DNA of 64,000 bases from Nitrospirota bacterium (GCA_963663225.1 OY760142.1:1972333-2036332); one strand, 5' to 3'; numbered from the stretch's first letter, positions 32,913 through 58,013 are shown. Numbers and translations: made by a program. The notes: generated by a model not told the origin, from the sequence alone.

Positions 32913-33101
32913 TCAAGGACACTGATTGTTTATAAAACAGTAGGGATCTCTGTCTTCAAAGATATTCAGATTATGGCTGTATGCACTGGCTAAGCACCCT
33001 CCACATACCGGGTGCATAGTGCAGGACCTGCATGCAGCACTGCCTGAACGATACTTTCTGGCCTGTTCAGAATCGTAAATATCGGCAAGAGTCTGTTTCA
33101 A
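32913..33101 (-). pseudogene. SPASM-like Cys-motif ORF (C-x2-C-x5-C-x2-C...C), likely relic of a radical-SAM maturase C-terminus
   Basis: CRSCTMHPVCGGC...DPYCF resembles auxiliary-cluster tails of SPASM enzymes; only a TTG start, no SD; 61 nt downstream of selenoprotein gene. Confidence 0.3.
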
Positions 33102-33162
33102 ATTGACCGGAAACTCTGGTCCCAGCGGACATGTATTGACGCGTCGTGTAATTATTCATACC

Positions 33163-33986
33163 TCAAGGAAGGATCTTGTTGATGTCTTTTTCCGCATAGT
33201 TTTCCCGGCGCCACCGGTACGGTAAATCTATGATGGCGCCCGGATTACGTATCTCGTGCAACGCGCGGAAAGCTTCAGCAAGAATGACGCGATGTTGTGC
33301 AGGCTTGAACGGCTCACCGAGCGGATGTCCGAAAGGCCATCTGACAAAAACGGTTCGCGGAGGCTTGACTGCTTCGGAATATTTACGGACAATCGAGATG
33401 CCTATCGTCGGGATGCCGGCTTTTTCTATCACCCGCTGTATCAGTCCGACGGACTGATTACAAATGCCTCAGGCGGGAGTCAACAGAACAACATCCACGC
33501 TGTCCGCCTTTAGTTTTTGAGCTATTTCAGGTGCGCTCGTCCTTGTCAGAGTCTGGATGTGGCGGCCGGTGATATGACCCATAAAACCATAGTGAGTGTC
33601 TGCTATTCGGCCAATGAGCCCTTCCTGCTCGAATTCTTTCAATCGTTCAAGTGGAAACACGATGTTGATGTCTTTGTCGGCATCAGCGTGGTCATAATAA
33701 TCGTGCGTGATCTTGAGACTGGAAAGGGGTCTCCTTGCATCGAGGGCTCTGTAGGAAGGGTCTCCATCATGGTCTGACATATTGAAAGGTTCCTGGTCAA
33801 TATGCTGTACACCGGACGTCGTTACAATAGCTATTTTTGAACTTTTAAGGCTTTTTATAACGGGAGTCCAGGGGATATCAAGCGAAGTCAATGGATCGTA
33901 AGCGTCTATGAATTTTTTCGCCAGCGATGGGAACCGAGTAATTACTTTTGCGATGAGTTGATTTTTAAGTCTCGCAAAGTCCATGT
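33163..33986 (-). CDS. Selenoprotein B family (GrdB/PrdB-like reductase subunit), UGA-Sec at 33469-33471
   Basis: ORFs 33469..34161 and 33163..33432 are in the same frame separated only by TGA + 12 codons; joined: ...VDVVLLTPA[U]GICNQSVGLIQRMIEKAGIPTIGISIV...RTVFVRWPFGHPLGEP matching GrdB/PrdB region (TUGxC, IERAGIP, IPHPLGNP); start placed at MDFARLKNQ. Confidence 0.8.
33440..33458 (-). other. Bacterial SECIS-like hairpin (8-bp perfect stem, GUC loop) 10 nt 3' of the UGA
   Basis: Minus-strand ATCAGTCC-GUC-GGACTGAT; position and G/U-containing apical loop fit bSECIS. Confidence 0.65.
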
Positions 33987-34087
33987 TTGGACCTCCAATG
34001 GAAAAGGTTTTTAAATCCAAAAATTCCACCAAAATGCCGGATGCTGTGCTGGGCCAATGTTTGCTCTCTGCGCCTGCTCCTGCGAAG

Positions 34088-35095
34088 TTATCTTCGCTCC
34101 GACCGTCCGCCTCCGTGCGGACTGCTGCCCTCTCTTCCTCCGCCCGGGAATCCACCTTCACGGCCTCCGCCGGGAGCCGGAGTAAATGTTTTCCCTTCTC
34201 TGCTCATACCGCCAGACGGACCGCCCTGCCTGCTACTTTCAGGAACAGGGGTGAACGTTTTATCTCTGCCTGTCAATTCACGTTCCCGGAAACCTCGAAA
34301 AACTGCATTGCTGCCTCCACGAGCACCGGTGATGATAAAGCGCTTTGACTTCTGCGGTACGCCTATTCCGCCATACGTTCGTCCATTGAACCTTTTAATC
34401 GGATCTATTCTGAAGACCCTGTTTGCGCGACGATCAACGAAGTGGTTTGAAATGATTTCCACCCGCCCGTGTACATGGACGACTCTGTGAAAATCAACCA
34501 GAATAAAATATCCGGGAAACCAGAAATCCCACCACCAGAAAGGATAGGGAATCCACGTATAAAGATAGAAATAATCCGGCGGCGGAGCGTAGTAGGTTAC
34601 TATTGGCGGGCCCTGTTCAGCATAGTAGTTATTCACCACGGTAGTTCCTTCAGAATTGTCATAGTGCGGGCTTGTCTGAGCAGTTTGCCCAGGAGGCGTT
34701 CCTTGTTTTACTGCAAGGCTTAGTCCTGTTGTAACTTTCTGGAATCCCCGCAATGCCTCGTCTTTTCCGATATCCAGCCGATTTGCATCTGCAGCGTCTA
34801 CAACAGATTGCCTCAACTCTCCGATGATGTCGGGTGTAACCGGGTAATCTGCAATCCATCCGTTTCTGGGGGCAATGCCTACGTCTGCCAGCCTGTTTTC
34901 GGCTTCGGTTTCATTTGCCGCTGTTGGGAGATTAAGCGCTTCAACCAGCTTGAGTGCAAGATCTCCTTCACGCACCAGGGGTTGGGCTATCGGAGGTTTT
35001 ATCTCAGCAGGCTGCATCGGCTGGGCATATGTTCCTGCGGGTATTAAACACAAAACAGCAAAAGTTATGAGTAAACGTTCAAACGACTTTTTCAT
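34088..35095 (-). CDS. Secreted hypothetical protein with aromatic cluster and Gly/Arg-rich repeat tail
   Basis: Start MKKSFERLLITFAVLCLIPAGTYAQP (signal peptide, SD GGAGGTG); PYPFWWWDFWFPGYF; C-terminal repeats DKTFTPVPESSRQGG / GKTFTPAPGGGREGG. Confidence 0.65.
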   Translation of the reverse strand: MKKSFERLLITFAVLCLIPAGTYAQPMQPAEIKPPIAQPLVREGDLALKLVEALNLPTAANETEAENRLADVGIAPRNGWIADYPVTPDIIGELRQSVVDAADANRLDIGKDEALRGFQKVTTGLSLAVKQGTPPGQTAQTSPHYDNSEGTTVVNNYYAEQGPPIVTYYAPPPDYFYLYTWIPYPFWWWDFWFPGYFILVDFHRVVHVHGRVEIISNHFVDRRANRVFRIDPIKRFNGRTYGGIGVPQKSKRFIITGARGGSNAVFRGFRERELTGRDKTFTPVPESSRQGGPSGGMSREGKTFTPAPGGGREGGFPGGGREGSSPHGGGRSERR

Positions 35096-35431
35096 GTGCC
35101 ACCTCGGAGTCGAATTATTTGAATCTTTGGTATCATAAGGCATTTTTCTGTGTTTATGAGCCTGTTATTTTTATAGCACTTGCCGCAAATCCTGTCAATT
35201 TGCTCACGATAAAATAATAATTATGAAATTAATATATCGAAAAAGCGGCATGACAAGGAAGTAACGAAATAGATAAGCAGACATCAACGGTTTGTTCTGA
35301 ATGCAGATGGCGATATCGTTAAGTGGATTAATATTTGTCTACTTCTTTAAAGCAGAATATTCCAGGATGATGTATATTATTATAAGCATAAAAATGTTTA
35401 AAAATATTATTTATGCATGCCGAAAAAGGGC

Positions 35432-35460
35432 TTGACAGGGTTGTCATTTTATCATAGTAT
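35432..35460 (+). promoter_or_regulatory. Sigma70-type promoter for liv-like operon (TTGACA-17-TAGTAT)
   Basis: Canonical -35/-10 with 17-nt spacer; -35 overlaps inverted repeat TGACAgggtTGTCA. Confidence 0.5.
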
Positions 35461-35533
35461 TTTACCGCAACAGATAAGATATCTTATGACAGATTTATTG
35501 TGTTTAAAAATAGAGAGAAGGAGGAAAGTTGAG

Positions 35534-36808
35534 ATGGCACAAAAGGGTTTTATAAAAGTATTCTTGAGTGTTGTATCACTGGTGCTGCTTCTTGGTTTCT
35601 CGGTGTCTGCACAGGCACAGCAGAAAGTCATCAAAATTGGTGCTGTTTATCCTTTAACCGGCAATATTGCCTCAACAGGTCTGGACAATAAGAGGGGTGT
35701 TGATCTAGCAGTAGATATCATTAATGGCAAGTATGATCTTGACCTCCCCCTGGCAAAAAGCGAAGGTCTACCGAATCTTGGCGGTGCAAAGATCGAAATT
35801 GTTTATGCCGACACCAAGGGCGACCCCAAAAACGGCATGTCTGAGACCGAACGTCTTATTACCCAGGAAAAGGTTGTCGGTATAATCGGCGCTTACCAGA
35901 GTTCCGTGACAAAGACAGCCAGCCAGGTAACAGAAAGGCTGAAGATTCCGTATGTTTGCTCGGATTCCTCTTCTCCTACCTTGACGGAAAGAGGGTTTAA
36001 GTATTTCTTCAGGGTAAGCCCTCATGATGCGATTTTTGCTCATGACCAATTCCAATTCCTGAAAGACCTCGAAAAGAAAACCGGACAAAAAGTTAAAACC
36101 ATTGCCCTGCTTTATGAGAACACAGAGTTCGGCGCCAATGTGGGCAAGGCCGAGAAAAAGTATGCTGAGCAGTATGGATACAAGGTCGTTGCCGACGTGA
36201 CCTATGCTGCGAACGCGACTGACGTGACGAGCGAGGTCGGCAGACTGATGAGCAGCAACCCGGACGTTTTACTGCATGCTTCCTATATTACCGATGCCAT
36301 TCTGTTTACCAAGACCTTTAAGGAAAGAGGGTTCCAACCGAAAGGCATCCTGACGATGGCGGGTTATATCGAACCGGGTTATCTTCCGGCAATCAAGGCA
36401 GACGGGAATAATATTATGGTAAGATCCACCTTCGCCCTTGATCTTGCAAAAAAGAAGAAACTTGTTGCCCAGGTCAACCAATTGTTTAAAAAGAAATACG
36501 GCATAGATATGAGCGAAAATGCTGCCAGAAGCTTCATGGCACCCTTTGTCCTTGCAGAAGCCATCAACCGGGCTAAGACAACGGAAGCAGAAGCCGTGGT
36601 AAATGCGCTCCTTGCGACCAATATCCCCGGCAAGCAGATCATCTATCCCTGGAAGGGAATAAAATTTGACCCCCAGTCACACCAGAATATTTACGCACAG
36701 GGAACACTGGTGCAGATTCTGAATCAGGAATATGTGACGGTATGGCCGTTTGATGCGGCGGCCAAGCAAGTTGTATGGCCTTTCCCGGCATGGAAAGGCA
36801 GAAAGTAG
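35534..36808 (+). CDS. ABC transporter substrate-binding protein, branched-chain amino acid (LivK/LivJ) family
   Basis: Start after SD AGGAGGA; signal peptide; type-I periplasmic binding fold. Confidence 0.85.
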   Translation: MAQKGFIKVFLSVVSLVLLLGFSVSAQAQQKVIKIGAVYPLTGNIASTGLDNKRGVDLAVDIINGKYDLDLPLAKSEGLPNLGGAKIEIVYADTKGDPKNGMSETERLITQEKVVGIIGAYQSSVTKTASQVTERLKIPYVCSDSSSPTLTERGFKYFFRVSPHDAIFAHDQFQFLKDLEKKTGQKVKTIALLYENTEFGANVGKAEKKYAEQYGYKVVADVTYAANATDVTSEVGRLMSSNPDVLLHASYITDAILFTKTFKERGFQPKGILTMAGYIEPGYLPAIKADGNNIMVRSTFALDLAKKKKLVAQVNQLFKKKYGIDMSENAARSFMAPFVLAEAINRAKTTEAEAVVNALLATNIPGKQIIYPWKGIKFDPQSHQNIYAQGTLVQILNQEYVTVWPFDAAAKQVVWPFPAWKGRK

Positions 36809-36875
36809 AATGTTCCTTGTGGTCGGCAGCAGGACGGATATCCTCCTGCTGCCGGACCGCAGATGAGGTTGATAT

Positions 36876-37736
36876 ATGTCTAATGAATTATTGCAGCAAC
36901 TTATAAACGGTTTACTGATCGGATTCATGTATGCGCTGATAGCCATCGGGCTGACTCTTGTCTGGGGCGTCATGAATATCGTGAATTTTGCCCATGGCGA
37001 CTTCCTTATGGTCGGGATGTTCTCCTCTTTCTGGCTCTTTACTTTGTATGCAATCGATCCCATTTTTTCTATTCCGATATGTTTTCTGCTCATGTTTTTG
37101 CTTGGGGTAGGCATTTATCGATTTATTGTGAGCAAAGTAATGAAAGGCCCCATGCTGGCGCAGGTGGTTGTCACCTTCGGAGTGAGTATTTTTGTCGCGA
37201 ATCTGGCTGTTTATTTCTGGACCCCGGATTTCCGGCTTCTGCCCGCGACGATTCTTCAGGGAACATGGACTCTCGGGGATATCGACTTCAGTGTTCCGAA
37301 AACCGTTTCCGCCATCGGGAGCATCGTTACTTCTTTCTGCGTTTATCTTTTTTTGAAGAAGACGAAAATGGGAAAGGCAATTCTGGCAACGGAAATGGAC
37401 CGCGAGGCGGCTTTGCTCATGGGAATCAACACGGAACGTATTAACTCGATTTCCTTCGGACTCGGGTTGGCGCTCGTGGGTGTTGCCGGTGCGTTTCTTT
37501 CCACATATTATTACATCTACCCGCAGGTGGGAGGGCAGTTCGGAACTCTCGCGTTTTGCATCGTTGCACTGGGCGGTTTCGGCAGTATCGGGGGGGCATT
37601 CATTGCCGGGATACTGGTAGGTCTGGTTCAGACGCTGGGAGGGTTCTTTTTCGATCCAGCGTACAAATACGCTATTGTGTTTATGATCTATCTTATTACA
37701 ATGTGGATAAGACCGCAAGGTCTTATGGGGTGGTAA
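36876..37736 (+). CDS. livH: Branched-chain amino acid ABC transporter permease (LivH-like)
   Basis: 286 aa, multi-TM, LivH family motifs. Confidence 0.85.
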   Translation: MSNELLQQLINGLLIGFMYALIAIGLTLVWGVMNIVNFAHGDFLMVGMFSSFWLFTLYAIDPIFSIPICFLLMFLLGVGIYRFIVSKVMKGPMLAQVVVTFGVSIFVANLAVYFWTPDFRLLPATILQGTWTLGDIDFSVPKTVSAIGSIVTSFCVYLFLKKTKMGKAILATEMDREAALLMGINTERINSISFGLGLALVGVAGAFLSTYYYIYPQVGGQFGTLAFCIVALGGFGSIGGAFIAGILVGLVQTLGGFFFDPAYKYAIVFMIYLITMWIRPQGLMGW

Positions 37737-37739
37737 CGT

Positions 37740-38705
37740 ATGTTTCGTTTAACAGCTCGACAGATTGTGCCAGGAGTCATTATTCTCCTATTACTGCTAG
37801 CCTTTCCGCTGGTTGTCCAGGCGACATTTCCGATACATGTCATGATCCTCGTGTTCCTGTTCGGCATGCTCGGAATCGGCTGGAATATCATGGGCGGCTA
37901 TGCAGGGATGTTTTCATTCGGGCAGGCGGCTTTTTTTGGAATAGGAGCCTATACTTCGTCCTTCCTCTCAATGACCTTCGGGGTTAATCCCTGGATAGGG
38001 CTCGTAGTCGGCGGAGTGGTTGCTGCACTGGTTGCTGCGGCAATCGGATATCCCTGCTCCAACCTTCGCGGCCACTATTTTGCTATCGCGACTATTGCCT
38101 TTGCTGAAATTGTAAGGGTTGTATTCAATAACTGGAAACTGGTAGGCGCCGCAGAAGGGCTATCCCTGCCTATGGTGGATGAGTCTCTTACCAACTTTAT
38201 GTTCCACACTTCGAAGCTTCCTTACTATTATATTGCACTGGCTTTTCTCATTATCTCACTGATCGTTTGCTATTTTGTCGCCACCTCAAAAATGGGCTAC
38301 TATTTCCGGGCTATCAAGGAAAGCCATGATGTCGCGGAGGTCCTGGGTGTGGATGTCGTCCGCTACCGGTTGATCGCTATCATGATAAGCGCATTTCTGA
38401 GTGCGGTAGCGGGAACGTTTTACGCACAATACATACTTTACATCGATCCCGAGAGCGTCATGCTTATGGCAATATCGGTGCAGATCGTTTTGATTACCAT
38501 GCTCGGCGGCGCGGGCAGCATTATGGGGCCGGTGATTGGCGCGGCTGTCTTGATCCCCATCGCAGAATATACGCGTACCATGCTCGGCCATAAAGGGACC
38601 GGCGTGGATATGCTGATATACGGTTTTCTCATCATGCTCATTTCGATGTACCAACCCGCGGGAGTCTGGGGTTTTCTTTCTAGGATAGGCAGGAAAACAA
38701 AATGA
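37740..38705 (+). CDS. livM: Branched-chain amino acid ABC transporter permease (LivM-like)
   Basis: 321 aa multi-TM; adjacent to livH. Confidence 0.85.
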   Translation: MFRLTARQIVPGVIILLLLLAFPLVVQATFPIHVMILVFLFGMLGIGWNIMGGYAGMFSFGQAAFFGIGAYTSSFLSMTFGVNPWIGLVVGGVVAALVAAAIGYPCSNLRGHYFAIATIAFAEIVRVVFNNWKLVGAAEGLSLPMVDESLTNFMFHTSKLPYYYIALAFLIISLIVCYFVATSKMGYYFRAIKESHDVAEVLGVDVVRYRLIAIMISAFLSAVAGTFYAQYILYIDPESVMLMAISVQIVLITMLGGAGSIMGPVIGAAVLIPIAEYTRTMLGHKGTGVDMLIYGFLIMLISMYQPAGVWGFLSRIGRKTK

Positions 38706-39442
38706 ACAAAGCGCTATGCTTAGACGTCAAAGGGCTGTCGATGTGGTTCGGCGGCCTTGCGGCCAACAACGATGTAAGCTTCTCCGTGGCCGAAGGAGAA
38801 ATTGTCAGCATCATCGGACCGAACGGCGCGGGCAAATCCACGCTGTTTAACTGCGTCACCGGATTTTACAAACCGACCAGCGGTAGTGTAACGTTTTACG
38901 GCAAGGAAATCAGCCGCATGGGGGCCGATAAAATCTGTAAACTGGGAATAGCGCGCACCTTCCAGATTGTACAGGTAATCAGCGATATGACCGTCCTTGA
39001 AAACGTAACAACAGGAGCATTGTTACGCTATAACCGGGTCAAACCGGCCAGGGAAAAGGCAGAAGAAATTCTCGCTTTTACGGGATTGCTTGAGAAAAAA
39101 GACTATCTGGCACCATCACTTACCATCGCGGATAAGAAGCGGCTTGAGGTCTCCATGGCATTGGCCACCCAACCGCGACTGCTGATGCTTGATGAATCCA
39201 TGGCAGGCCTCACCAAGGTAGAGCTGAACCAGATCATCGATCTGATCAAAAAAGTGCGTGACAGCGGGGTGACGCTGGTTGTTGTGGAACACGTGATGGA
39301 AGCCGTAATGAAAATATCAGACCGAGTCGTCGTTCTGAATTCCGGCAAAAAGATCATGGAAGGAGCACCGAAGGAAGTGGTCTCCAATCCTGAAGTTATT
39401 CAAGCTTATTTAGGGGAAAAATACCGTGCTGTCTCTCAATAA
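38702..39442 (+). CDS. livG: ABC transporter ATP-binding protein (LivG-like)
   Basis: Walker A GPNGAGKST, signature, Walker B LLMLDE. Confidence 0.9.
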   Translation: MNKALCLDVKGLSMWFGGLAANNDVSFSVAEGEIVSIIGPNGAGKSTLFNCVTGFYKPTSGSVTFYGKEISRMGADKICKLGIARTFQIVQVISDMTVLENVTTGALLRYNRVKPAREKAEEILAFTGLLEKKDYLAPSLTIADKKRLEVSMALATQPRLLMLDESMAGLTKVELNQIIDLIKKVRDSGVTLVVVEHVMEAVMKISDRVVVLNSGKKIMEGAPKEVVSNPEVIQAYLGEKYRAVSQ

Positions 39443-40130
39443 TATATCCGTTGGTTATAAGGGTCTCCTGGCTGTCCAGGATGCCTCATTTAAGATCAAT
39501 GACGGGGAGATCGTGAGCCTTATCGGTTCAAACGGTGCCGGGAAATCGACCATCGTTAAGGCCATCTCCGGTCTTTTGCATCCTCAAAAGGGTGAAATTA
39601 CTTTCAAAAACATACCGATTCACAAGACGGCTCCCTTCGATATCGTAAAGCTGGGCATTTCCATGATTCCCGAAGGGAGAAGGCTCTTTGGAAGATTGTC
39701 CGTGCTGGATAATCTCTTGATGGGTGCGTACGCGATTTCATCCAAGTCGGAAATTGAAAAAAACCTGCAGACGGTCTTCGAGTTATTTCCCATTCTGAAG
39801 GAAAGACAAGCGCAACGCTCCCAAACCTTCAGCGGCGGTGAGCAGCAGCAGCTTGCCATCGGACGGGGTCTTATGTCCAACCCGTCGCTGCTTGTGCTGG
39901 ATGAGCCTTCTCTGGGACTCAGCCCAAAACTGGTTTCGGAAATATTCCGGATTGTCAAGGAAATCAATGCCCGGGGTGTCACGATCCTGCTCGTCGAGCA
40001 GAATGTTTTCGAAGCTCTGGAGATTTCCCACCGCGCCTATGTTCTCCAAACAGGACACATTGTGATGGAAGGAAAAAGCCAGGAACTCCTGCAAAGCGAT
40101 CTCGTGCGGCAGGCCTATCTTGGCATGTAG
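39426..40130 (+). CDS. livF: ABC transporter ATP-binding protein (LivF-like)
   Basis: Walker A GSNGAGKST, FSGGEQQQLAIGR, LLVLDEPS. Confidence 0.9.
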   Translation: MLSLNNISVGYKGLLAVQDASFKINDGEIVSLIGSNGAGKSTIVKAISGLLHPQKGEITFKNIPIHKTAPFDIVKLGISMIPEGRRLFGRLSVLDNLLMGAYAISSKSEIEKNLQTVFELFPILKERQAQRSQTFSGGEQQQLAIGRGLMSNPSLLVLDEPSLGLSPKLVSEIFRIVKEINARGVTILLVEQNVFEALEISHRAYVLQTGHIVMEGKSQELLQSDLVRQAYLGM

Positions 40131-40140
40131 TCCGTTCTGA

Positions 40141-41442
40141 TTGAGTGAATCAGGTATGAATTTCATCATGAAATATGGGAAAACAGGATTGTCTCTTGAT
40201 CTTCCTGATACTCTAGAGCCGACTGTTATCCAGAAGCAAGTAATGCCTGTTTTGCAAGACCCCGAGAATGCCGTCCTGTCCGCTTTTGCAAATCCCGTAC
40301 AATGCAAGACACTCCGCGAGGAGGCAGCAGGCTCCCGCAGCGCCTGTATTTTAATCTGCGATATTACGCGGCCGGTGCCGAACAAACACATTCTTCCTCC
40401 CCTGGTAAAAGAGCTGATTGCGGCGGGGATGAACCCCCAGTCGATCTCGATCCTTGTTGCAACGGGCCTTCATCGGCCGAGCGAAGGCGATGAACTTCGT
40501 GAACTGGTGGGAAGCGACTGGGTCATGAATACCGTCTCTGTCGCGAACCACTACGCCCGCAATAGTGAGGACCACGAATATATCGGAACGACCACGACCG
40601 GCATCGAAACAAGGCTCGACCGCCGGTTTCTGAAAGCAGAACTTCGCATTGTCATCGGGCTTGTGGAACCGCATTTCATGGCAGGATATTCCGGAGGAAG
40701 AAAGATCGTGGCCCCCGGCGTTGCTTATGAAAAGACGATCCGGTCCTTTCACTGCGCAAAGATTCTTGAGGATTCCAAATCCGCAAGCTGTGTCTTAGAG
40801 GGAAATCCGCTGCACGAGACGCAGATGGAAATTGTGCGGATGGTAGGAAAGTGTTTCGCCATCAATACCGTCATTGACGAAGACAAAAAAATGTCTTTTG
40901 TGAACTTTGGAGAGATCGAACAAAGTCATCTAGAGGCCGTATCTTTTGTACGACCGTATGCAATTATTCCGGTCCATCGCAGGTTTAAGACAGTTTTGAC
41001 CAGCTCTGCAGGCTATCCCCTCGATAAAACATACTATCAGACAGTCAAAGGAATGGTGGGCCCCGTTGATATTCTGGAGCCCGGCGGAGATATTATCATT
41101 GTTTCCGCATGTTCAGAAGGCGTCGGATCGCCTGAATACGCAGAGGCCCAGTTGTGTCTTGTGAATCAGGGACCAGACAAATTTCTTGATGAAATTTTGG
41201 AGAAACGGTACGCAGCGGTTGATGAATGGCAGACGGAAATGCAGGTCAAGGCCATGAAGAGGGCAAATATTTATTTGTATACCGAGGGGTTAACAAAGGA
41301 AGAACGGTCCATTACCGGGGTTTCCCTGATTCCGTCTCCGGTGGCCGCGATCATGGATAGTGTTGCGCGCCATCGTGATAACCGTATAGCCGTAATTCCC
41401 GAAGGACCGTACGTGGTTCCTATGTTTATACCATCTCCATAA
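40141..41442 (+). CDS. larA: LarA-family protein (nickel-pincer-nucleotide dependent 2-hydroxyacid racemase/epimerase homolog, DUF2088)
   Basis: 433 aa; DUF2088 N-domain; VEPHFMAGYSGGRK (NPN-tethering Lys context), His-containing motifs; 10 nt after livF; alternative start at 40156. Confidence 0.7.
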   Translation: MSESGMNFIMKYGKTGLSLDLPDTLEPTVIQKQVMPVLQDPENAVLSAFANPVQCKTLREEAAGSRSACILICDITRPVPNKHILPPLVKELIAAGMNPQSISILVATGLHRPSEGDELRELVGSDWVMNTVSVANHYARNSEDHEYIGTTTTGIETRLDRRFLKAELRIVIGLVEPHFMAGYSGGRKIVAPGVAYEKTIRSFHCAKILEDSKSASCVLEGNPLHETQMEIVRMVGKCFAINTVIDEDKKMSFVNFGEIEQSHLEAVSFVRPYAIIPVHRRFKTVLTSSAGYPLDKTYYQTVKGMVGPVDILEPGGDIIIVSACSEGVGSPEYAEAQLCLVNQGPDKFLDEILEKRYAAVDEWQTEMQVKAMKRANIYLYTEGLTKEERSITGVSLIPSPVAAIMDSVARHRDNRIAVIPEGPYVVPMFIPSP

Positions 41443-41730
41443 ACTGCATACTCTCTTCAGATGCAGTTGTTTTCCCCGCGATGCTGCCTGTCTCAATACT
41501 CGGCGCCTTTCCTTTCTTTCAGAACATCTTTTTCAATATCCCATGATGACATTTTTGTTAAAACGATGTTTGTATACTGCTGTTTAGATAGAAAAAATAG
41601 TTTTTTCGCGCTGTAATGCAATGCAGTATTGTGCAATTTTTTGTTGCTAGAGGCCATAATTTTGTGTAATATATAAGACTAACTTTTTTATTACAAAAAC
41701 ACACGAATCTCAGGAAAGTATAATCTGGTA

Positions 41731-42879
41731 ATGAAGGTAGCACAGAATATATGGAAGAGCGGTAATAGCCTTATGTCCTCTGCAGACGGCCCCCTCAATA
41801 CGTCTGCCCAACTTGCTCTTGTTTTTGGGTCAAAACCCGTTTTAGAAGAACGGTTCTTCTATCAGAAGATGCGAAGCCTCTATCCGAACGCTCACATTTT
41901 AGGGTGTTCAACCGCAGGAGAAATACAGGGAACGCAGGTATATGATGATTCAGTGGTAGCAACTGCGATAACCTTTGAAGCCACGCGGATTGAAAGAGCG
42001 CGGATTACTCTGAAAGAAGTAGAAAATGCATTTCAAGCCGGAGAAAGACTTTCTCACGCACTAGCAAAAGACGGACTGGTTCATCTATTCGTTTTATCGG
42101 ATGGATTGAACATAAACGGCAGTGATCTTGTCCGGGGTCTTACGCAGCACCTCCCAAAAGATATAACCGTTACCGGAGGACTGGCCGGCGACGGCGACCG
42201 CTTCAAGAAAACACTCGTATTCTGTGATGGAGATCCGGAAACAGGAACAATTGCCGCCATCGGACTGTACGGAAGCAATCTGCAGGTCGGGTACAGTTCC
42301 CGGGGAGGTTGGGACCCTTTTGGACCTGAGCGGCTGATTACCCGCTCGCAGGGAAATATTTTGTATGAACTGGACGGCCGGTCCGCGCTCGAACTTTACA
42401 AAAAATATCTTGGGGAACATGCGAAAGGGCTTCCGGGATCAGCTCTTCTTTTCCCCCTTAGCCTTCGTACGCCGGGAAGCAGAGAAACCGGGGTTGTCAG
42501 GACTGTACTTTCCATAAATGAAGAAGACCAGAGCATGATTTTCCCTGGTGACGTCCCGGAAGGGGCCTATGCGCGTTTTATGAAGGCGAATTTCGACCGG
42601 CTGATAGACGGCTCTATCAATGCGGCCAAAAGCTGCTACGGTGCCGTGGGATCTGCACCGCCGGATCTTGCGATACTCATCAGCTGCTTCGGCAGAAAGA
42701 TGATCTTAAAACAAAGGACAGAAGAAGAAGTGGAAGGTGTGCGGGATGTTTTTGGGGACAATACGGTGCTTACGGGTTTTTATTCCTATGGCGAAATCTC
42801 ACCATTCACTTCAAGCGGGAGTTGTGAATTGCATAATCAGACCATGACGATTACAACGTTTACGGAGCGCGGATCATGA
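41731..42879 (+). CDS. FIST-domain sensory protein
   Basis: 382 aa; FIST_N and FIST_C regions; overlaps downstream HK by 4 bp. Confidence 0.75.
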   Translation: MKVAQNIWKSGNSLMSSADGPLNTSAQLALVFGSKPVLEERFFYQKMRSLYPNAHILGCSTAGEIQGTQVYDDSVVATAITFEATRIERARITLKEVENAFQAGERLSHALAKDGLVHLFVLSDGLNINGSDLVRGLTQHLPKDITVTGGLAGDGDRFKKTLVFCDGDPETGTIAAIGLYGSNLQVGYSSRGGWDPFGPERLITRSQGNILYELDGRSALELYKKYLGEHAKGLPGSALLFPLSLRTPGSRETGVVRTVLSINEEDQSMIFPGDVPEGAYARFMKANFDRLIDGSINAAKSCYGAVGSAPPDLAILISCFGRKMILKQRTEEEVEGVRDVFGDNTVLTGFYSYGEISPFTSSGSCELHNQTMTITTFTERGS

Positions 42880-44924
42880 ATCAGATGCACAGTCTCCTGA
42901 AACGACAGCTCAAAAAATTTTTCAATAGTACGTACCCTGTTCCACAGGAGTGGGAGCCGTTTATTAATGCAATCAACAATGCCTATCGGGAATTCGATGA
43001 AGACCGTGCACTCCTTGAACGTGCCCTCGAACTCAGTTCTCAGGAGCTGATCGAGGCCAATTCCGAAATGCGGGCCATTTTTGAAGCTCTTCCTGATCTG
43101 CTTTTCAGATTTGATCACGATGGAAGAGTTATTGATTACAAAGCGGGGAGAGTAAATGATTTATACTTCTATCCTGAAAAACTAATCGGAAAGCGTATTC
43201 AGGATGTTCCTCCTGCGCATGTCGGAAGCAAGTTCCTGGAGTGCATCCGGAAAGTTCAGGATACAAAAGCAATACAAAGCTTTGAATATTCATTGCCGAT
43301 ACAGGACCGGGAATGTTTTTATGAGGCAAGGCTTCTGCCTCTCATTGAGGACCAGATCATTGCCATCGTACGGAACATTACCGCCAGAAAAAAAGCGGAA
43401 CTGGCCCTGAGACAAAGCGAGGAGGAATACAGAACGCTTGTTGAGAATATCAACGCGGGCATATACAGGAGCAGTCCGGATGTATACGGACATTTTATAC
43501 AAGTAAATAACGCCATGGTAAAAATTTTTGGCGCTGCTTTTGCAGAAGATTTGATAGGGTGCTGTGTTCTTGATTTTTATAAAGACAAAGAGGCACGAAA
43601 TGCTTTCCTGCAGGAAATAGATCAAAAAGGCTTTGTAAAAGACAAGGAATTGTACCTGCGGAAACAAGATGGAACACCCATCATCGTATCCTGCACGGCG
43701 GCAATTCAGTATGATGCATTCGGCAGCAAGCGCTGGATTGATGGCGTCATGGAAGATATCACGGAGCATAAAAAGATTGAAGAAGAGATTGCCAAAACGT
43801 CCAAACTGGAATCGCTCGGCATCCTGGCCGGCGGCATTGCGCATGATTTTAACAATATTCTCACCGCAATTCTAGGCAATATTTCCCTGGCAAGGATGAA
43901 AACGGAGCAGGGGGGCGTTGTTTTCTCCTGTCTGGACAACGCAGAAAAGGCTTCAATACGGGCGCAAACCCTTACGCAGCAACTACTGACATTTTCGAGA
44001 GGTGGAGCGCCGGTTAAAAAAGCGTCGTCCATCAACGATCTTCTCCGTGATTCCGCAAATTTTGTCATAACCGGTTCCAATATCCGGTGCGATTTTCATA
44101 TTCCTGATGATCTTCCGGCCATCGAGATTGATGAAGGTCAGATCAGCCGGGTTATTCACAATCTCGTTATCAATGCGCAGCAGTCCATGCCGCAGGGTGG
44201 TGTGATTCACATACAGGCTGAGCGTATTGCAATCACCAGTACATCTGACAACCCTCACGGGCTTCCGCTACAAGATGGAAACTACGTAAAAATAAGCATT
44301 CAGGACCAGGGGATTGGAATACCGGAAGAATATTTGGGAAAAATTTTCGACCCCTATTTTACCACAAAGGAGAAAGGCTCCGGACTCGGACTGACCACAA
44401 GTTATTCCATCATGAAAAGGCACGGTGGACATATCGCCCTGCAGTCAACAGTCGGCACCGGGACGACGTTTTTTCTTTATTTGCCTGCATTGCACGAGGG
44501 TGCGGTGACAAAAAAGAAGGAACAGCGATCCCAGACAAAAGGACACGGGAAAATACTGCTGATGGACGACGAGGAAATTATCAGAGACGTCGGCGGAGGG
44601 ATGCTGCGGTACCTGGGATACGACGTTACCGTTGCTAAAAATGGTGCGGAAGCAATTTTTCTGGCAACCGATGCGATGAAACGCGGTGAGAGTTATGACG
44701 CAATTATCATGGATTTAACCATCCCCGGTGGCATGGGCGGAAAGGAGGCTGCATCCCGATTGCAAGCGCTGGATTGTTCGTCGAAGATAATTGCCTCGAG
44801 CGGTTATTCCAACGATCCGGTATTGTCAGAATATAAGAAGTACGGTTTCTGCGCGATTGCACCAAAGCCATATGGCATTGAGGAATTAAGAAATATCCTG
44901 CATCAGGTCATTACAAAGAATTAG
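42876..44924 (+). CDS. PAS-domain hybrid sensor histidine kinase with C-terminal receiver
   Basis: 682 aa; two PAS, HisKA H-box HDFNNILTAILGNISLA, HATPase_c, REC (LLMDDEEI...IMDLTIPGGMGG). Confidence 0.88.
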   Translation: MNQMHSLLKRQLKKFFNSTYPVPQEWEPFINAINNAYREFDEDRALLERALELSSQELIEANSEMRAIFEALPDLLFRFDHDGRVIDYKAGRVNDLYFYPEKLIGKRIQDVPPAHVGSKFLECIRKVQDTKAIQSFEYSLPIQDRECFYEARLLPLIEDQIIAIVRNITARKKAELALRQSEEEYRTLVENINAGIYRSSPDVYGHFIQVNNAMVKIFGAAFAEDLIGCCVLDFYKDKEARNAFLQEIDQKGFVKDKELYLRKQDGTPIIVSCTAAIQYDAFGSKRWIDGVMEDITEHKKIEEEIAKTSKLESLGILAGGIAHDFNNILTAILGNISLARMKTEQGGVVFSCLDNAEKASIRAQTLTQQLLTFSRGGAPVKKASSINDLLRDSANFVITGSNIRCDFHIPDDLPAIEIDEGQISRVIHNLVINAQQSMPQGGVIHIQAERIAITSTSDNPHGLPLQDGNYVKISIQDQGIGIPEEYLGKIFDPYFTTKEKGSGLGLTTSYSIMKRHGGHIALQSTVGTGTTFFLYLPALHEGAVTKKKEQRSQTKGHGKILLMDDEEIIRDVGGGMLRYLGYDVTVAKNGAEAIFLATDAMKRGESYDAIIMDLTIPGGMGGKEAASRLQALDCSSKIIASSGYSNDPVLSEYKKYGFCAIAPKPYGIEELRNILHQVITKN

Positions 44925-44998
44925 AATTGCAGAATACGCAGAGAGTTCGGAACGTCTCCTGAAGCCGAAAGGGATGAAAAAATTGCCGGGAAAAATAA

Positions 44999-45676
44999 TT
45001 ATGATTTTCCCGCTGTGCAGAGTTCTTCTTTTTTGAGCTGAAGCGGCGCGACGTCTTGCTTCCAGATGTCAATTGTCTCGGTGATATGCTGCCACATCCA
45101 AGTCCTTGCTCTTTCCGGTTCCTGTTTCCGGATGGCTTTAAAAATTTCCCAGTGTCGCACTGCTGAACGATCGACAATGGTCGGAATTCTGTTGACGATA
45201 AAAAGCTGATATTGCAGCAGATTCCTTATATTGCTCAAAGTTTTAAAAAGAATGCGGTTTCCTGCAGCCTTCGCTATCGCATAATGAAATTCCACATCTT
45301 TTTCACTAAATGATTCTATATCACCTTCCGCGACACTCCGGTCCATGTCTTTTAACAGTGATTCAATTTCAGAAAGAGTTTCTGCCGTGCAATTTTGAGC
45401 GGCCATCATGGCGAAGTAGGATTCTAAAGTCCTTCTTGCTTCCAGAAGCTCCTCTATAATCGGTGCGCCATGCGTTGCGAACACGCCTTTTCCATGACAA
45501 ATTTCCAGTATGCCGAGGGTTGCGAGATTTTGCACCGCCTCGCGCACAGAAAGAACACTCGTTCCGCTCTTTTTTGCCAGATTCTCCAGAGAGGGCAGCT
45601 TATCCCCGGGCTTGATTTCACCCGTAACAAATGCATCAAGAAGATTCTTAATTACGATGTCTCCAGCCTTAATCAT
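44999..45676 (-). CDS. GntR-family transcriptional regulator (FadR/FCD type)
   Basis: 225 aa; N-terminal GntR wHTH, C-terminal FCD domain. Confidence 0.85.
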   Translation of the reverse strand: MIKAGDIVIKNLLDAFVTGEIKPGDKLPSLENLAKKSGTSVLSVREAVQNLATLGILEICHGKGVFATHGAPIIEELLEARRTLESYFAMMAAQNCTAETLSEIESLLKDMDRSVAEGDIESFSEKDVEFHYAIAKAAGNRILFKTLSNIRNLLQYQLFIVNRIPTIVDRSAVRHWEIFKAIRKQEPERARTWMWQHITETIDIWKQDVAPLQLKKEELCTAGKS

Positions 45677-45781
45677 TGCTCTACTATAATTTTCTCGGCT
45701 TAAGACGTCAAGTTTTTTTTATATCAGAACCGTGCTTTTTATTATCCCGGGTTGCTTTCACATCAACACGACCGAGTTGCA

Positions 45782-47485
45782 TTAGACTTTAAAGTGGTCG
45801 ACGGTGCTTTTGAGCTGTCCGGCGAGTCGTGCAAGTTCGGACGAGGCCTGGGCAATCTGCTCGGACCCTCCGGATATCTGTTTGGCGCCGTTCGCCACAG
45901 CCTGAATGTCACCCGAAATCATCTCCGAAGTCGCCGACATCTCTTCCGTGGACGACGCAATCTGCTGCACCATGTTCTGGAGCGTATTTACGCTCGTAAC
46001 AATCGATTCGAGCTGCGTACCGGCCTCCGTAGAAAACTTCAGACCGACCTCCACCTTTTCATTGGTGGTCGCCATGGTCGCAACCGTGGAATCGACTTCT
46101 CCCTGGATCGCCCCGATCATCTGGCTGATTTCCGACGTGGCATTGGCGGTGCGCTCCGCAAGCTTCCTGACTTCATCGGCAACAACGGCAAACCCGCGGC
46201 CCTGCTCTCCGGCACGGGCAGCCTCAATGGCAGCATTCAGGGCAAGCAGGTTGGTCTGATCGGCTATATCATTGATAACACTGACGATTTTACCGATCTG
46301 CTTGGAGCGGTCGCCCAAAGTCTGCACCACCGCAGTGGATTTAGCCACGGTTTCCGAAATGGCCTTTGTCTCCTCAACCGACTGGCCCACAATGTTTGCG
46401 CCTTTCTTTGCAATTCCGGAGGTATTGGCTGCTGACGTGGAAATCTCCGAAGAGTTTTTCGCAACATCCACAATCGTCTGGGACATTTCCTCGGCTGAAG
46501 TGGCAATCTGGGTCGCCCGGTTGCTCTGGTCGCGCATGGTCTTGGTGATTTCTTCGGCGTTCGCACTCAGTTCTTCGCTTCCTGATGCCACGCTGGCTGA
46601 AGCGGTCTTGATCTCTCCTACCAGATTCTTGAGGCTTTCGGTCATGCGCTGCATCTGTGCATACACGCCGGTATGCACCTTTCCATTGTCAAATCGCACC
46701 GTCAGGTCTCCGTCGGCGATTTTACCGGCAATGTTCGCAAGCTCATCCGGCTCCCCGCCAAGCTGCGCCATGGTCTTTCTGAAGGTCATCGACGCCGCGC
46801 CGACCGCCACCAGTGCGGCAATCAGGGCGGAAAGAAGGAGAACAGTAATTACTCTTCTGGTATCGGCAGCCTGTTTCTTCTCCTCTTTCGCGATAATGGC
46901 TTCCAGGTCATCCACGTAATTGCCGGTGCCCACAACCCATCCCCAGGGCTTGAATTCAAGGGTGTAACCGCGCTTTAAAATCGGGATGTCGCTCCCCATC
47001 TTGGTGAAATAATAGTCAATGAATCCACCACCTTCTTTTCTGCCGCTCTCTATGAATTCCTTCACAAAGTATTTTCCCTTTTTATCCTGCAGGTTGATCC
47101 TGCTCTTCCCCTCAAAATCCTTTTTGCCGAGCAGAACCACGTTCACGCCTTCAATCGTGTCAGCCCAGAAATACCCTTCCTTCCCGAACCGGAGCCCCCG
47201 CAGCACATTCGCGGCAAGGGTTTTGGCCTGCTCCGCTTTCAGCTCACCCTTTTCCTGGCGATCATGAATGTTCTGGAGCATCGAAACCGCGGTTTCAACC
47301 TCCGATTTGGCAAGAGCGTCGTAGTCGGCAAACAGGTTCTTTCTCAGTTCCGCGATGCTGTCCTTCGCTCCCGAATAGCTCTGATAGGCTGCTATGCAGC
47401 AGAGCAGTACGGCCACCAGCACGCAGCTTAAGATGGTGGTGAAGGCCAGCCTCTTAGCAAAGGTCATTTTCCCAATTTTATTCAT
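45782..47485 (-). CDS. Methyl-accepting chemotaxis protein with periplasmic Cache-like sensor
   Basis: 567 aa; TM-sensor-TM-HAMP-MCP signalling domain. Confidence 0.88.
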
Positions 47486-56240: not shown

Positions 56241-58013
56241 ATGCAGTGGAAGATGGTAACCGATCCTTTCGATAATATTGGCCTGTCCGCACTTTTGGCG
56301 GCAATACCTATTCTCTACCTGTTCTGGGCGTTGGCCTATGTACGTATGAAAGGGCACTGGGCTGCCATCAGTGGAACCATCATTGCTATTCTTGTCGCCA
56401 TCTTTGGCTACGGAATGCCGGTGGAGCTCGCAATGGCATCCACCTTCTTCGGGAGCCTCTTCGGACTCTGGCCGGTGGGATGGATCGTGGTCACTGCAAT
56501 TTTCCTGTTGAGCCTCTCCATCAGGACTGGTCAATTTGAAATCATCAGAAACTCTCTTGCTGCGGTTACGGCCGACCGCCGCATGCAGGCGCTGTTGATC
56601 GCTTTTTCATTCGGGGCCTTCATTGAAGGAGCCTCGGGATTCGGAACGCCTGTCGCGATTACCGGCGCAATGCTGATTGGACTCGGCTTTGAACCACTAT
56701 ATGCAGCCGCCATCTGTCTTCTTGCAAATACCGCCCCGGTGGCATTCGGCGTCATCGGTATCCCTGTCACGGTTGCCAGCCAGGTTTCCGGCGTTGACCT
56801 GACGGCCCTCAGCCAGTTGGTGGGACGCACGCTGCCGTTTTTAAGTCTCATTATTCCCTTCTATATTGTCGTGCTCATGTCAGGCTGGAAAAAAGGAATG
56901 GTTGTCTGGCCTGCCTGCCTGGTGTGCGGCGGTTCATTCGCAATAACCCAATGGTATGTTTCCAATTTTATCGGCCCGCAGCTTACCGACATCGCCGCCG
57001 CCCTTGTTTCGATCGTCTGTCTTACGGTCTTCCTGCATAGGTGGCATCCGGAGGAAGTCTGGACTTTTGAACACGAGCCTGATGCAGTCAGCAGAGAGGA
57101 ACTGAAGTATTCAGGGGGGCAAGTATTTAAAGCATGGGCTCCGTTTATCATAATGTCGGTTTTTGTGGCCGCCTGGGGTATCGGACCAATCAGATCGGTT
57201 CTTGATTCCTTCGGCATGGTGAAATTAGAAATCCCCATGCTCCATAATGCGGTTATTCGGGGCGGTGTTCCGATGGCGGCAGTTTACAATTTCAATATTC
57301 TGAGCGCGGCTGGCACCGCTATGCTGTTTGCGGCCATTTTTTCTATCCCCGTGATGGGCGCGTCCATGGAAACTGTTGTGAGCGTTGCCAAGGAAACCAT
57401 TGCAAGACTCCTGTGGACCATGGTTACTATTGCGTCCATTCTCGGTTTCGCCTATATCATGAACTTCTCGGGAATGGCGGTTACTCTTGGTTATGCGTTC
57501 GCCCAAACAGGAATTTTCTTTCCGTTCTTCGCCGCGTTCCTGGGATGGCTGGGAGTGTTCATGACTGGGTCTGACACGTCATCCAATGCGCTGTTCGGAA
57601 AACTGCAGGAAGTTACCGCCCGGGCAATCGGTGTGGACCCTGTGGTCACCGTTGCAGCCAATGCATCGGGCGGGGTATGCGGAAAAATGATTTCTCCGCA
57701 GTCGCTTTCTGTTGCAACAGCCGCGACGCACTTGGTAGGACGGGAAGCGGATATTCTGCATTTGACGATCAAGCACTCGATCATTCTGACCGCTTTGATT
57801 GGTGTTTTTGTGTATCTTCAGGCATACGTCCTTACCTGGATGATTCCCGTGTATGAGAAAGCCGCCGTTGCTGCGCCGGCCGCAACAGCAGCCGCTGCAT
57901 CAGCGTCGCAGACGGAAGGGATCATCTATTTGTCGGTCACTCTCGGGATAACGATTATTTTGATTATTTCGGCAATCAGTGCGGCAGGCTCTCGGTCGAG
58001 ATCTGCTGCCTGA
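56241..58013 (+). CDS. lctP: L-lactate permease (LctP family)
   Basis: 590 aa, ~14 TM; LctP family N-terminal signature; SD GGAGGGG upstream. Confidence 0.9.
   Translation: MQWKMVTDPFDNIGLSALLAAIPILYLFWALAYVRMKGHWAAISGTIIAILVAIFGYGMPVELAMASTFFGSLFGLWPVGWIVVTAIFLLSLSIRTGQFEIIRNSLAAVTADRRMQALLIAFSFGAFIEGASGFGTPVAITGAMLIGLGFEPLYAAAICLLANTAPVAFGVIGIPVTVASQVSGVDLTALSQLVGRTLPFLSLIIPFYIVVLMSGWKKGMVVWPACLVCGGSFAITQWYVSNFIGPQLTDIAAALVSIVCLTVFLHRWHPEEVWTFEHEPDAVSREELKYSGGQVFKAWAPFIIMSVFVAAWGIGPIRSVLDSFGMVKLEIPMLHNAVIRGGVPMAAVYNFNILSAAGTAMLFAAIFSIPVMGASMETVVSVAKETIARLLWTMVTIASILGFAYIMNFSGMAVTLGYAFAQTGIFFPFFAAFLGWLGVFMTGSDTSSNALFGKLQEVTARAIGVDPVVTVAANASGGVCGKMISPQSLSVATAATHLVGREADILHLTIKHSIILTALIGVFVYLQAYVLTWMIPVYEKAAVAAPAATAAAASASQTEGIIYLSVTLGITIILIISAISAAGSRSRSAA

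Follow-up and report, generated by a model that had tools for sequence, protein, structure and literature searches.

A Liv-type ABC importer and a LarAIp-like LarA homolog encoded in one conserved cassette of a Nitrospirota bacterium, with glycerate as a candidate substrate

Gene content and architecture of the cassette

We analyzed a 64,000-nt stretch of the genome of a Nitrospirota bacterium (GCA_963663225.1, OY760142.1:1972333-2036332), hereafter the window, in which six co-directional genes at positions 35534-41442 encode a complete Liv-type ATP-binding cassette (ABC) importer, consisting of a substrate-binding protein (SBP), LivH, LivM, LivG, and LivF, followed by a homolog of LarA, an enzyme whose cofactor is the nickel-pincer nucleotide (NPN). 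This arrangement, first recognized in a first-pass annotation of the window, was confirmed by a gene map that combined a listing of open reading frames (ORFs) with Pfam and NCBIfam scans of the window. The features of the locus are as follows.

35432..35460, plus strand: candidate promoter, TTGACA-17-TAGTAT (10/12 positions), ~74 nt 5' of the SBP start codon.
35534..36808, plus strand: SBP of the HAAT/Liv superfamily, SAR11_0655-like subfamily, 424 aa including a Sec signal peptide (Peripla_BP_6, E 1.7e-56).
36876..37736, plus strand: ABC permease, LivH/UrtB-like (BPD_transp_2, E 1.7e-34; under all NCBIfam equivalog cut-offs).
37740..38705, plus strand: ABC permease, LivM/UrtC-like (BPD_transp_2, E 6.3e-43).
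38702..39442, plus strand: ABC ATPase, LivG-like (ABC_tran and BCA_ABC_TP_C; 4-nt overlap with livM).
39426..40130, plus strand: ABC ATPase, LivF-like (ABC_tran; LivF model 235.7 bits, cut-off 441; 17-nt overlap with livG).
40156 (ATG; alternative TTG 40141)..41442, plus strand: LarA homolog, 428 aa, LarAIp/SAR-like (Lar_N, E 2.7e-54; LarA_C, E 4.6e-16).
41442..41475, plus strand: terminator-like hairpin followed by GUUUU, directly 3' of the larA stop codon.
44999..45676, minus strand: GntR/FCD regulator (Pfam GntR and FCD), a tentative candidate for control of the cassette.

The SBP ORF could open at 35417, but the ATG at 35534, from which the first-pass annotation had started the gene, is preceded by AAGGAGG and encodes a Sec signal peptide ending in AQA, in agreement with that start. 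From the SBP gene to livF, successive genes are separated by 67 nt and 3 nt and then overlap by 4 nt and 17 nt. The livF stop at 40130 lies 25 nt from larA if the latter starts at ATG 40156, which is the start in the database protein and in the consensus N-terminus of its relatives; the distance of 10 nt given earlier holds for TTG 40141 only. The earlier description of LarA as "fused" to the importer cannot be taken literally, as the genes are separate and closely spaced.

We infer that the six genes form one transcription unit. Transcription of larA separately from livF is unlikely, because the 25-nt gap contains no hairpin, the sole terminator-like hairpin of the unit follows larA, and the livF-larA junction is conserved across phyla (see below). 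The hairpin after larA has a folding energy of -9.9 kcal/mol (z = -2.9, with 2/200 shuffles equally good), and a 288-nt AT-rich spacer lies beyond it. In a promoter and terminator scan of positions 34800-42000, the numbers of sites equaled the shuffle expectation, and the promoter-like site is a candidate only. A perfect inverted repeat over its -35 box, TGACAgggtTGTCA (TGACA-GGGT-TGTCA, 35433-35446), was rejected as a conserved operator: among 85 SBP upstream regions it occurs in one, that of the window, and in none of the 84 relatives. An Rfam scan of positions 33000-46000 (E up to 0.1) gave no match, and hence no riboswitch.

The LarA homolog and the binding protein

Among solved structures, the window LarA is best matched by LarA of Isosphaera pallida (LarAIp; PDB 9EIA) at 345.8 bits; LarA of T. 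thermosaccharolyticum (LarATt) scores 211 bits, LarA of L. plantarum (LarALp) 168-170, and Mar2 167. An AlphaFold (AF2) model of the window protein (pLDDT 94.5) superposes on 9EIA with a TM score of 0.92 at 41% identity, and TM scores across the LarA structures range from 0.86 to 0.93; identity to LarALp, LarATt, and Mar2 is 27-30%. The residues for catalysis and cofactor binding are retained (numbering of the 428-aa protein): the catalytic pair H106 and H173, the cofactor-tethering K183, and the nickel ligand H199, which correspond to H108, H174, K184, and H200 in L. plantarum. The lysine lies in the GGRK context that had been noted from the sequence as the NPN tether. Also retained are R72, Y294, Q295, and K298, which anchor the carboxylate and the 2-hydroxyl group, and the pocket for the C-alpha substituent is formed by F174, M175, W358, and Q359. 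In an alignment of 32 relatives, which includes a 34%-identical outlier, all of these residues are invariant except Q359, which is kept in at least 90%; loss of the conserved lysine or histidines, which would have undermined the first reading of the gene, was thus not observed.

The four pocket positions hold the C-alpha substituent in LarAIp (Gatreddi et al., 2025; PMC11851776), a broad-spectrum racemase of short-chain 2-hydroxy acids (LarAH2/SAR; PDB 9EIA, 9EID, 9EIF) that racemises lactate and 2-hydroxybutyrate best, followed by L-glycerate, and that co-purifies with D-lactate (PMC11851776). The window LarA shares with LarAIp the fold, identical cofactor, catalytic, and carboxylate/2-OH residues, and Met, Trp, and Gln at the same pocket positions; it differs in having Phe in place of L174 and a two-residue insertion before the helix that bears W-Q. 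Members of the SAR group have Leu-Met or Phe-Met after the second catalytic histidine, so that the Phe is a listed variant within the group, whereas lactate racemases have Phe-Phe at this point (Desguin et al., 2020; PMC7583248). The last pocket position has been linked to substrate range, with Gln associated with high glycerate activity (LarAH43) and Lys with malate/tartrate activity (Urdiain-Arraiza et al., 2024; PMC11770544). With LarAIp as its closest characterized relative and the Leu/Phe-Met and Trp-Gln pocket signature, the window protein is predicted to belong to LarAH group 2/SAR, for which no malate racemase activity was found (PMC7583248).

Of the NCBIfam models, the lactate-racemase equivalog NF033504 (Ni_dep_LarA) scores best, at 345.9 bits against a cut-off of 460, and three relatives (L013, L035, and L061) reach 334-345 bits on the same model; the window LarA is also under the cut-off of every other NCBIfam LarAH model. 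Because the best match is LarAIp, the pocket residues agree, and the NCBIfam scores are below cut-off, we assign the window protein, on sequence, to the LarA superfamily as a LarAIp-type enzyme whose pocket is small and neutral, rather than as a curated lactate racemase.

The genome (3.26 Mb, single contig, 99% complete) also encodes the means of cofactor supply. As reported earlier, larB, larC, and larE are absent from the window (1.972-2.036 Mb of the contig), but all three are present in the genome: larB and larC are adjacent at 1.042-1.044 Mb, and larE lies at 2.715 Mb. Their products score above the respective NCBIfam cut-offs (LarB 302.7 bits, cut-off 175; LarC 221.1, cut-off 90; LarE 319.5, cut-off 150). 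The window larA is the only Lar_N-containing gene in the whole genome. Compared with the lar operon of L. plantarum (LarA, PDB 5HUQ and 6C1W), the window system shares the NPN-dependent chemistry, the functional residues, and possession of larB, larC, and larE, but LarA identity is 27-28%, the biosynthesis genes are not clustered with larA, and no lactate permease, LarD, or LarR is adjacent. The lctP gene lies at 56241-58013, 14.8 kb downstream of the cassette, consistent with the earlier remark that it is unlinked.

The importer comprises the full HAAT set: a secreted Peripla_BP_6 SBP, two BPD_transp_2 permeases, and LivG- and LivF-type ATPases. Although this five-component architecture and its Pfam families are those of E. 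coli LivJ/K-LivHMGF (TC 3.A.1.4), all five window proteins are far under the LIV-I equivalog cut-offs (SBP 67.6 bits vs 477; LivH 123 vs 379; LivM 126 vs 366; LivG 229 vs 362; LivF 236 vs 441). The best solved relative of the SBP is SAR11_0655 of 'Ca. Pelagibacter ubique' (PDB 8WCH; 331 bits, 42% identity), and identity to the remaining solved HAAT SBPs, including those of LivJ/K type, is ~20%. A branched-chain amino or hydroxy acid ligand, as the 'Liv' name might suggest, was rejected, given this distance from LIV binders. Nor is the SBP specifically amino-acid-like, being ~20% identical to proteins of LivJ/K type and 42% identical to a pyroglutamate binder, which qualifies the earlier description of the importer as amino-acid type. 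The structure model of the SBP is poor (pLDDT 69.7, from a shallow alignment).

SAR11_0655 binds L-pyroglutamate with a Kd below 5 nM and adjoins 5-oxoprolinase genes (Clifton et al., 2024; PMC11485210). Like the window SBP, it precedes a LivHMGF-type transporter; unlike it, its operon context is 5-oxoprolinase (pxpABC), whereas the partner of the window SBP is LarA. Neither the PxpA-type (PF03746) nor the hydantoinase-B-type (PF02538) 5-oxoprolinase was matched in the 99%-complete genome, and because both are lacking, the ligand of the window SBP is likely to be other than pyroglutamate. A non-amino carboxylate would be in character for the superfamily, since the ligands of other HAAT SBPs include 2-oxo acids and aromatic acids, as judged from structure titles.

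Conservation of the cassette and its neighboring genes

A LarA-anchored survey of contigs with one genome per species identified at least 597 relatives, and neighborhoods and a tree were derived for the best 80. The SBP-livHMGF genes lie upstream of larA in 18/80, with Liv proteins 58-98% identical to those of the window. In 14 of these 18, larA follows livF within ~20-200 nt; three have 4-5 kb of unrelated genes between livF and larA, and one has a glycerate kinase gene there. By record title, the liv-linked loci belong to Nitrospirota, Acidobacteriota, Syntrophales, Syntrophorhabdaceae, and other 'delta proteobacteria'. In a FastTree phylogeny of the 80 genome sequences, the window LarA falls in a clade of 19 (99% local support), of which 15 are liv-linked; on this tree the liv label requires at least five changes, but its clustering greatly exceeds that in 500 shuffles.

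A complementary SBP-anchored survey of metagenome contigs yielded 31 loci in which the contig continues for at least 700 nt past livF, some of them near-duplicates, so that counts overstate independence. In 25/31, a LarA homolog directly follows livF, starting 12-56 nt after it in 24 and 422 nt after it in one. The LarA is of window type in 21 of these 25 (56-75% identity) and of a distant lineage in four (~32% identity, pocket F-M-W-E). The recurrence of the livF-larA junction in 25/31 loci, with two LarA lineages, argues for functional coupling of the importer and LarA. The distant lineage is exemplified by L156:14406-15839 and also found at four further loci (L151, L153, L155, and L159), where it begins 12-15 nt beyond the livF gene of a transporter of the same type; its LarA, 32% identical to the window enzyme, reaches similar scores with the NCBIfam models for MAR and for LarA.

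Within the taxonomic order of the window genome, larA is found in 10/64 genomes (3/6 in the genus), one copy being broken. The patchy presence (10/64) together with the high cross-phylum identity makes the cassette look like an accessory, horizontally exchanged module. The broken copy lies in a genome of the same family (G032:C2:2071487-2072768), where the LarA ortholog is split in two frames with an internal TGA; it is probably a pseudogene, and fits a patchy accessory distribution.

In related loci the cassette is repeatedly accompanied by genes for glycerate metabolism. A DUF4147 and MOFRL glycerate 2-kinase gene occurs 12-20 nt after larA in nine loci (L014, L017-L020, L106, L110, L128, and L166), between livF and larA in L055, directly 5' of the SBP gene in L025, L027, L028, and many metagenome loci, and after the distant-type LarA in L155, L156, and L159. 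In three further loci, L033, L034, and L036, the transporter is missing; there the kinase gene follows larA, and two aminotransferase genes precede larA. Genes for tartronate-semialdehyde reductase and hydroxypyruvate isomerase lie 5' of the SBP gene in L016, L020, L029, L055, and about nine metagenome loci; the reductase scores 521 bits (cut-off 397), and the isomerase, which also passes the 2-oxo-tetronate isomerase model, 359 bits (cut-off 353). All three enzymes (kinase, reductase, and isomerase) make or consume D-glycerate. The window genome encodes orthologs of each (57, 74, and 71% identity, respectively) at scattered positions. At G000:C1:1159000-1168000 (L173), the reductase and isomerase genes are clustered with those for TctABC, an IlvD/EDD-family dehydratase, and a DHDPS-family aldolase, an arrangement suggestive of a sugar-acid pathway with D-glycerate as its end product.

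The GntR/FCD regulator of the window, 3.5 kb downstream of the cassette, is 56% identical to a GntR protein encoded directly 5' of the SBP gene in L029, and a GntR gene adjoins the cassette in L029, L055, L107, L124, L138, and L140. Typing of this regulator gave weak, sub-threshold NCBIfam matches only (LldR, NanR, PdhR, and GlcC) and was uninformative. Between the cassette and the regulator gene, at 41731-44924, the genes for a FIST-domain protein and a PAS hybrid histidine kinase share a 4-nt overlap; the pair is common only to the window and a 96%-identical relative (L011) and is probably outside the module.

Associations of this kind were not reported for the LarAH groups defined previously: no neighbor COG is associated with LarAH group 2 (Desguin et al., 2020, Table S1; PMC7583248), in contrast to the window clade, which is linked with both an ABC importer and glycerate kinase, and neither HAAT importers nor glycerate kinase were listed as associated with any LarAH group (PMC7583248). 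A precedent is LarAH group 9, where LarA homologs cluster with an ABC importer of amino-acid type (COG0765, COG0834, and COG1126, 80% association; Desguin et al., 2020); there, however, the importer is of PAAT rather than HAAT type, the LarAH group is another, and the partners differ (aminotransferase and acetyltransferase). The chemistry, fold, and family are already known and the closest enzyme is structurally characterized, but the genomic context is new.

Candidate substrates of the importer and LarA

The conserved synteny and the enzyme subgroup support the earlier proposal of uptake coupled to stereo-inversion of a hydroxy acid, and the cassette very probably serves the import of a small 2-hydroxy monocarboxylate and its stereo-inversion by LarA. 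Glycerate, feeding a D-glycerate 2-kinase, is the likeliest physiological substrate among the candidates, at about even odds. Which ligand is transported, which way the flux runs, and what the enzyme does we infer as follows. The secreted SBP would capture the hydroxy acid in the periplasm, and the LivH/LivM-type permeases, energized by the LivG/LivF-type ATPases, would import it. In the cytoplasm, LarA would carry the NPN supplied by LarB, LarC, and LarE, tethered through K183 with H199 as nickel ligand, and would racemise C2 by proton-coupled hydride transfer via H106 and H173. L-glycerate, or a D/L mixture, would in this way yield D-glycerate, to be converted to 2-phosphoglycerate by the MOFRL-type glycerate 2-kinase. 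We read LarA as turning imported L-glycerate or racemate into the kinase substrate because it combines a small, polar-tolerant pocket with a position, in many loci, beside the kinase gene.

Several observations weigh against glycerate. The window cassette itself has no adjacent kinase, reductase, or isomerase gene, these lying 0.5-0.9 Mb off. The best substrates of LarAIp are lactate and 2-hydroxybutyrate (PMC11851776), and the L174F replacement brings the pocket nearer to that of the L. plantarum lactate racemase. The sole characterized relative of the SBP binds L-pyroglutamate and no hydroxy acid. Members of the same LarA clade occur beside genes for a DASS transporter and tartrate dehydrogenase (L013) or for a split UxaA-family dehydratase, which hints at other substrates. 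Finally, a natural source of, or need for, L-glycerate in these organisms is not established.

Some of these points bear directly on the scavenging of lactate or 2-hydroxybutyrate, in which LarA would equilibrate D- and L-lactate for stereospecific lactate-oxidizing enzymes, and which we consider unlikely, although still a contender. The preference of LarAIp (KM 0.15-0.56 mM for lactate/2-hydroxybutyrate), with a pocket that differs from that of the window enzyme only by L174F, is consistent with this role, as are the rank of Ni_dep_LarA as best NCBIfam model, the presence in the genome of lctP and of several GlcD-like and CCG-type oxidoreductases, and LldR as the weak best match of the GntR regulator. 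A GlcD-like FAD oxidase is also encoded within 6 kb of larA in nine relatives without liv genes, directly after it in five (L037, L054, L061, L066, and L068). However, the NF033504 score remains below the lactate-racemase cut-off, lctP is unlinked, and no lactate permease or lactate dehydrogenase lies beside the cassette in any liv-linked locus, where glycerate-pathway enzymes recur instead. Classical lactate racemisation, which the first-pass view had set aside, keeps some probability because the closest characterized enzyme prefers lactate. The glycerate-pathway neighbors would also suit the import of a tartrate isomer or another C4 hydroxy-dicarboxylate, its C2 being epimerised by LarA and the product passing through tartrate dehydrogenase or a UxaA-type dehydratase, and then the reductase, isomerase, and glycerate kinase, to 2-phosphoglycerate or oxaloacetate. 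Glycerate kinase of the DUF4147/MOFRL family is the TtuD of tartrate operons, and hydroxypyruvate isomerase and tartronate-semialdehyde reductase fit an oxaloglycolate route. In an Acidobacteriota metagenome-assembled genome that has no Liv genes at the locus (L013:8409-12427), the gene for a DASS transporter is followed by one for a LarA 74% identical to that of the window and then by one for tartrate dehydrogenase (TIGR02089, 532.6 bits, cut-off 470), a possible sign that this LarA clade is connected with tartrate or D-malate; in addition, a split UxaA-family dehydratase and malic enzyme flank the Syntrophales-type loci, and the window genome has a tartrate dehydrogenase homolog (54% identity). 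Against this, the pocket (F174, M175, W358, and Q359) lacks the last-position Lys of malate/tartrate-active LarAHs (PMC11770544), LarAH2/SAR showed no malate racemase activity (PMC7583248), and hardly any liv-linked locus carries tartrate dehydrogenase, such that we consider tartrate improbable.

The split UxaA-family enzyme also raises the prospect of 3-sulfolactate, with imported (S)-sulfolactate converted by LarA to the (R) form for a SuyAB-like sulfo-lyase that releases sulfite for respiration, in place of the two-dehydrogenase racemase SlcC/ComC. In the Syntrophales-type loci, the cassette is divergently adjacent to this enzyme (96-aa SAF and 387-aa large subunit) and to a 3-HIBDH-type dehydrogenase; the split into a short and a large subunit is as in SuyA/SuyB, and we take the subunit sizes to match SuyAB as well. 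Many cassette hosts bear titles of what are presumably sulfate/sulfite-reducer lineages, and the UxaA-family pair is encoded in the window genome too (77 and 54% identity). Of the sulfolactate isomers, the (S) form is the one common in nature, and SuyAB acts specifically on the (R) form (PMC11193023). Sulfolactate is nevertheless quite improbable, as the glycerate kinase adjacency would be left unexplained, the pocket has nothing that would obviously serve a sulfonate as cationic partner, a sulfite exporter was not observed next to the UxaA-family pair, and in the window genome that pair is unlinked to the cassette. The large subunit is named 'altronate dehydratase large subunit' or 'UxaA family hydrolase' in the sources, never SuyB; the name SuyAB was rejected for the split enzyme, on account of these disagreeing names and an NCBIfam result limited to a sub-threshold GarD match. 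A literature search found no paper linking LarA with sulfolactate. The alternative in which LarA is merely a neighbor of unrelated function beside an importer of L-pyroglutamate or amino acids is highly improbable: the nanomolar L-pyroglutamate binding of SAR11_0655, the single close characterized homolog of the SBP, and the branched-chain amino acid names of the Pfam and NCBIfam families would favor it, but the pyroglutamate reading was rejected for the lack of both 5-oxoprolinase types, the SBP is remote from the LIV-binding model and from LivJ/K-type structures, and the livF-larA junction recurs with two LarA lineages.

LarA homologs are widespread, but a physiological substrate is known for only a minority of them, and the cassette provides the SAR/LarAIp group with an informative neighborhood: a conserved, apparently mobile six-gene module in which LarA is linked with its own high-affinity importer and, for most relatives, also with enzymes of the glycerate pathway. 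If glycerate is the substrate, the cassette would give a physiological role to a glycerate racemase activity so far known in vitro only (a literature search found no paper with the term 'glycerate racemase'). In that case it would also extend the ligands of the SAR11_0655-like SBP subfamily, of which one is known at present, to a hydroxy acid, and would reveal how the two enantiomers of a C3 acid are both used by anaerobic bacteria of soil and peat. If it is sulfolactate, organosulfonate degradation would gain its first step that depends on NPN. In practical terms the cassette is of modest value, as it supplies a well-defined pair of SBP and enzyme for substrate screening.

Other genes were observed near larA in the surveyed loci and in the window. 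In Syntrophales-type loci, a 682-aa ORF convergent to larA (L027:11248-13296; also L125, L129, L134, and L137) combines an N-terminal Cache domain (sCache_2/dCache_2) with a complete malic enzyme, an unusual sensor-enzyme architecture unless the ORF merges two genes. Six alphaproteobacterial loci (L035, L041, L048, L069, L074, and L077; 54-59% identity) have a glutamate-synthase-like set ~2.5-4.5 kb upstream of larA, comprising Glu_synthase/GXGXG, a Pyr_redox_2 and Fer4_20 protein, and GATase. In the window, an ORF on the minus strand at 33469-34161 matches the C-terminal part only of the model for GRDB (glycine/sarcosine/betaine reductase B).

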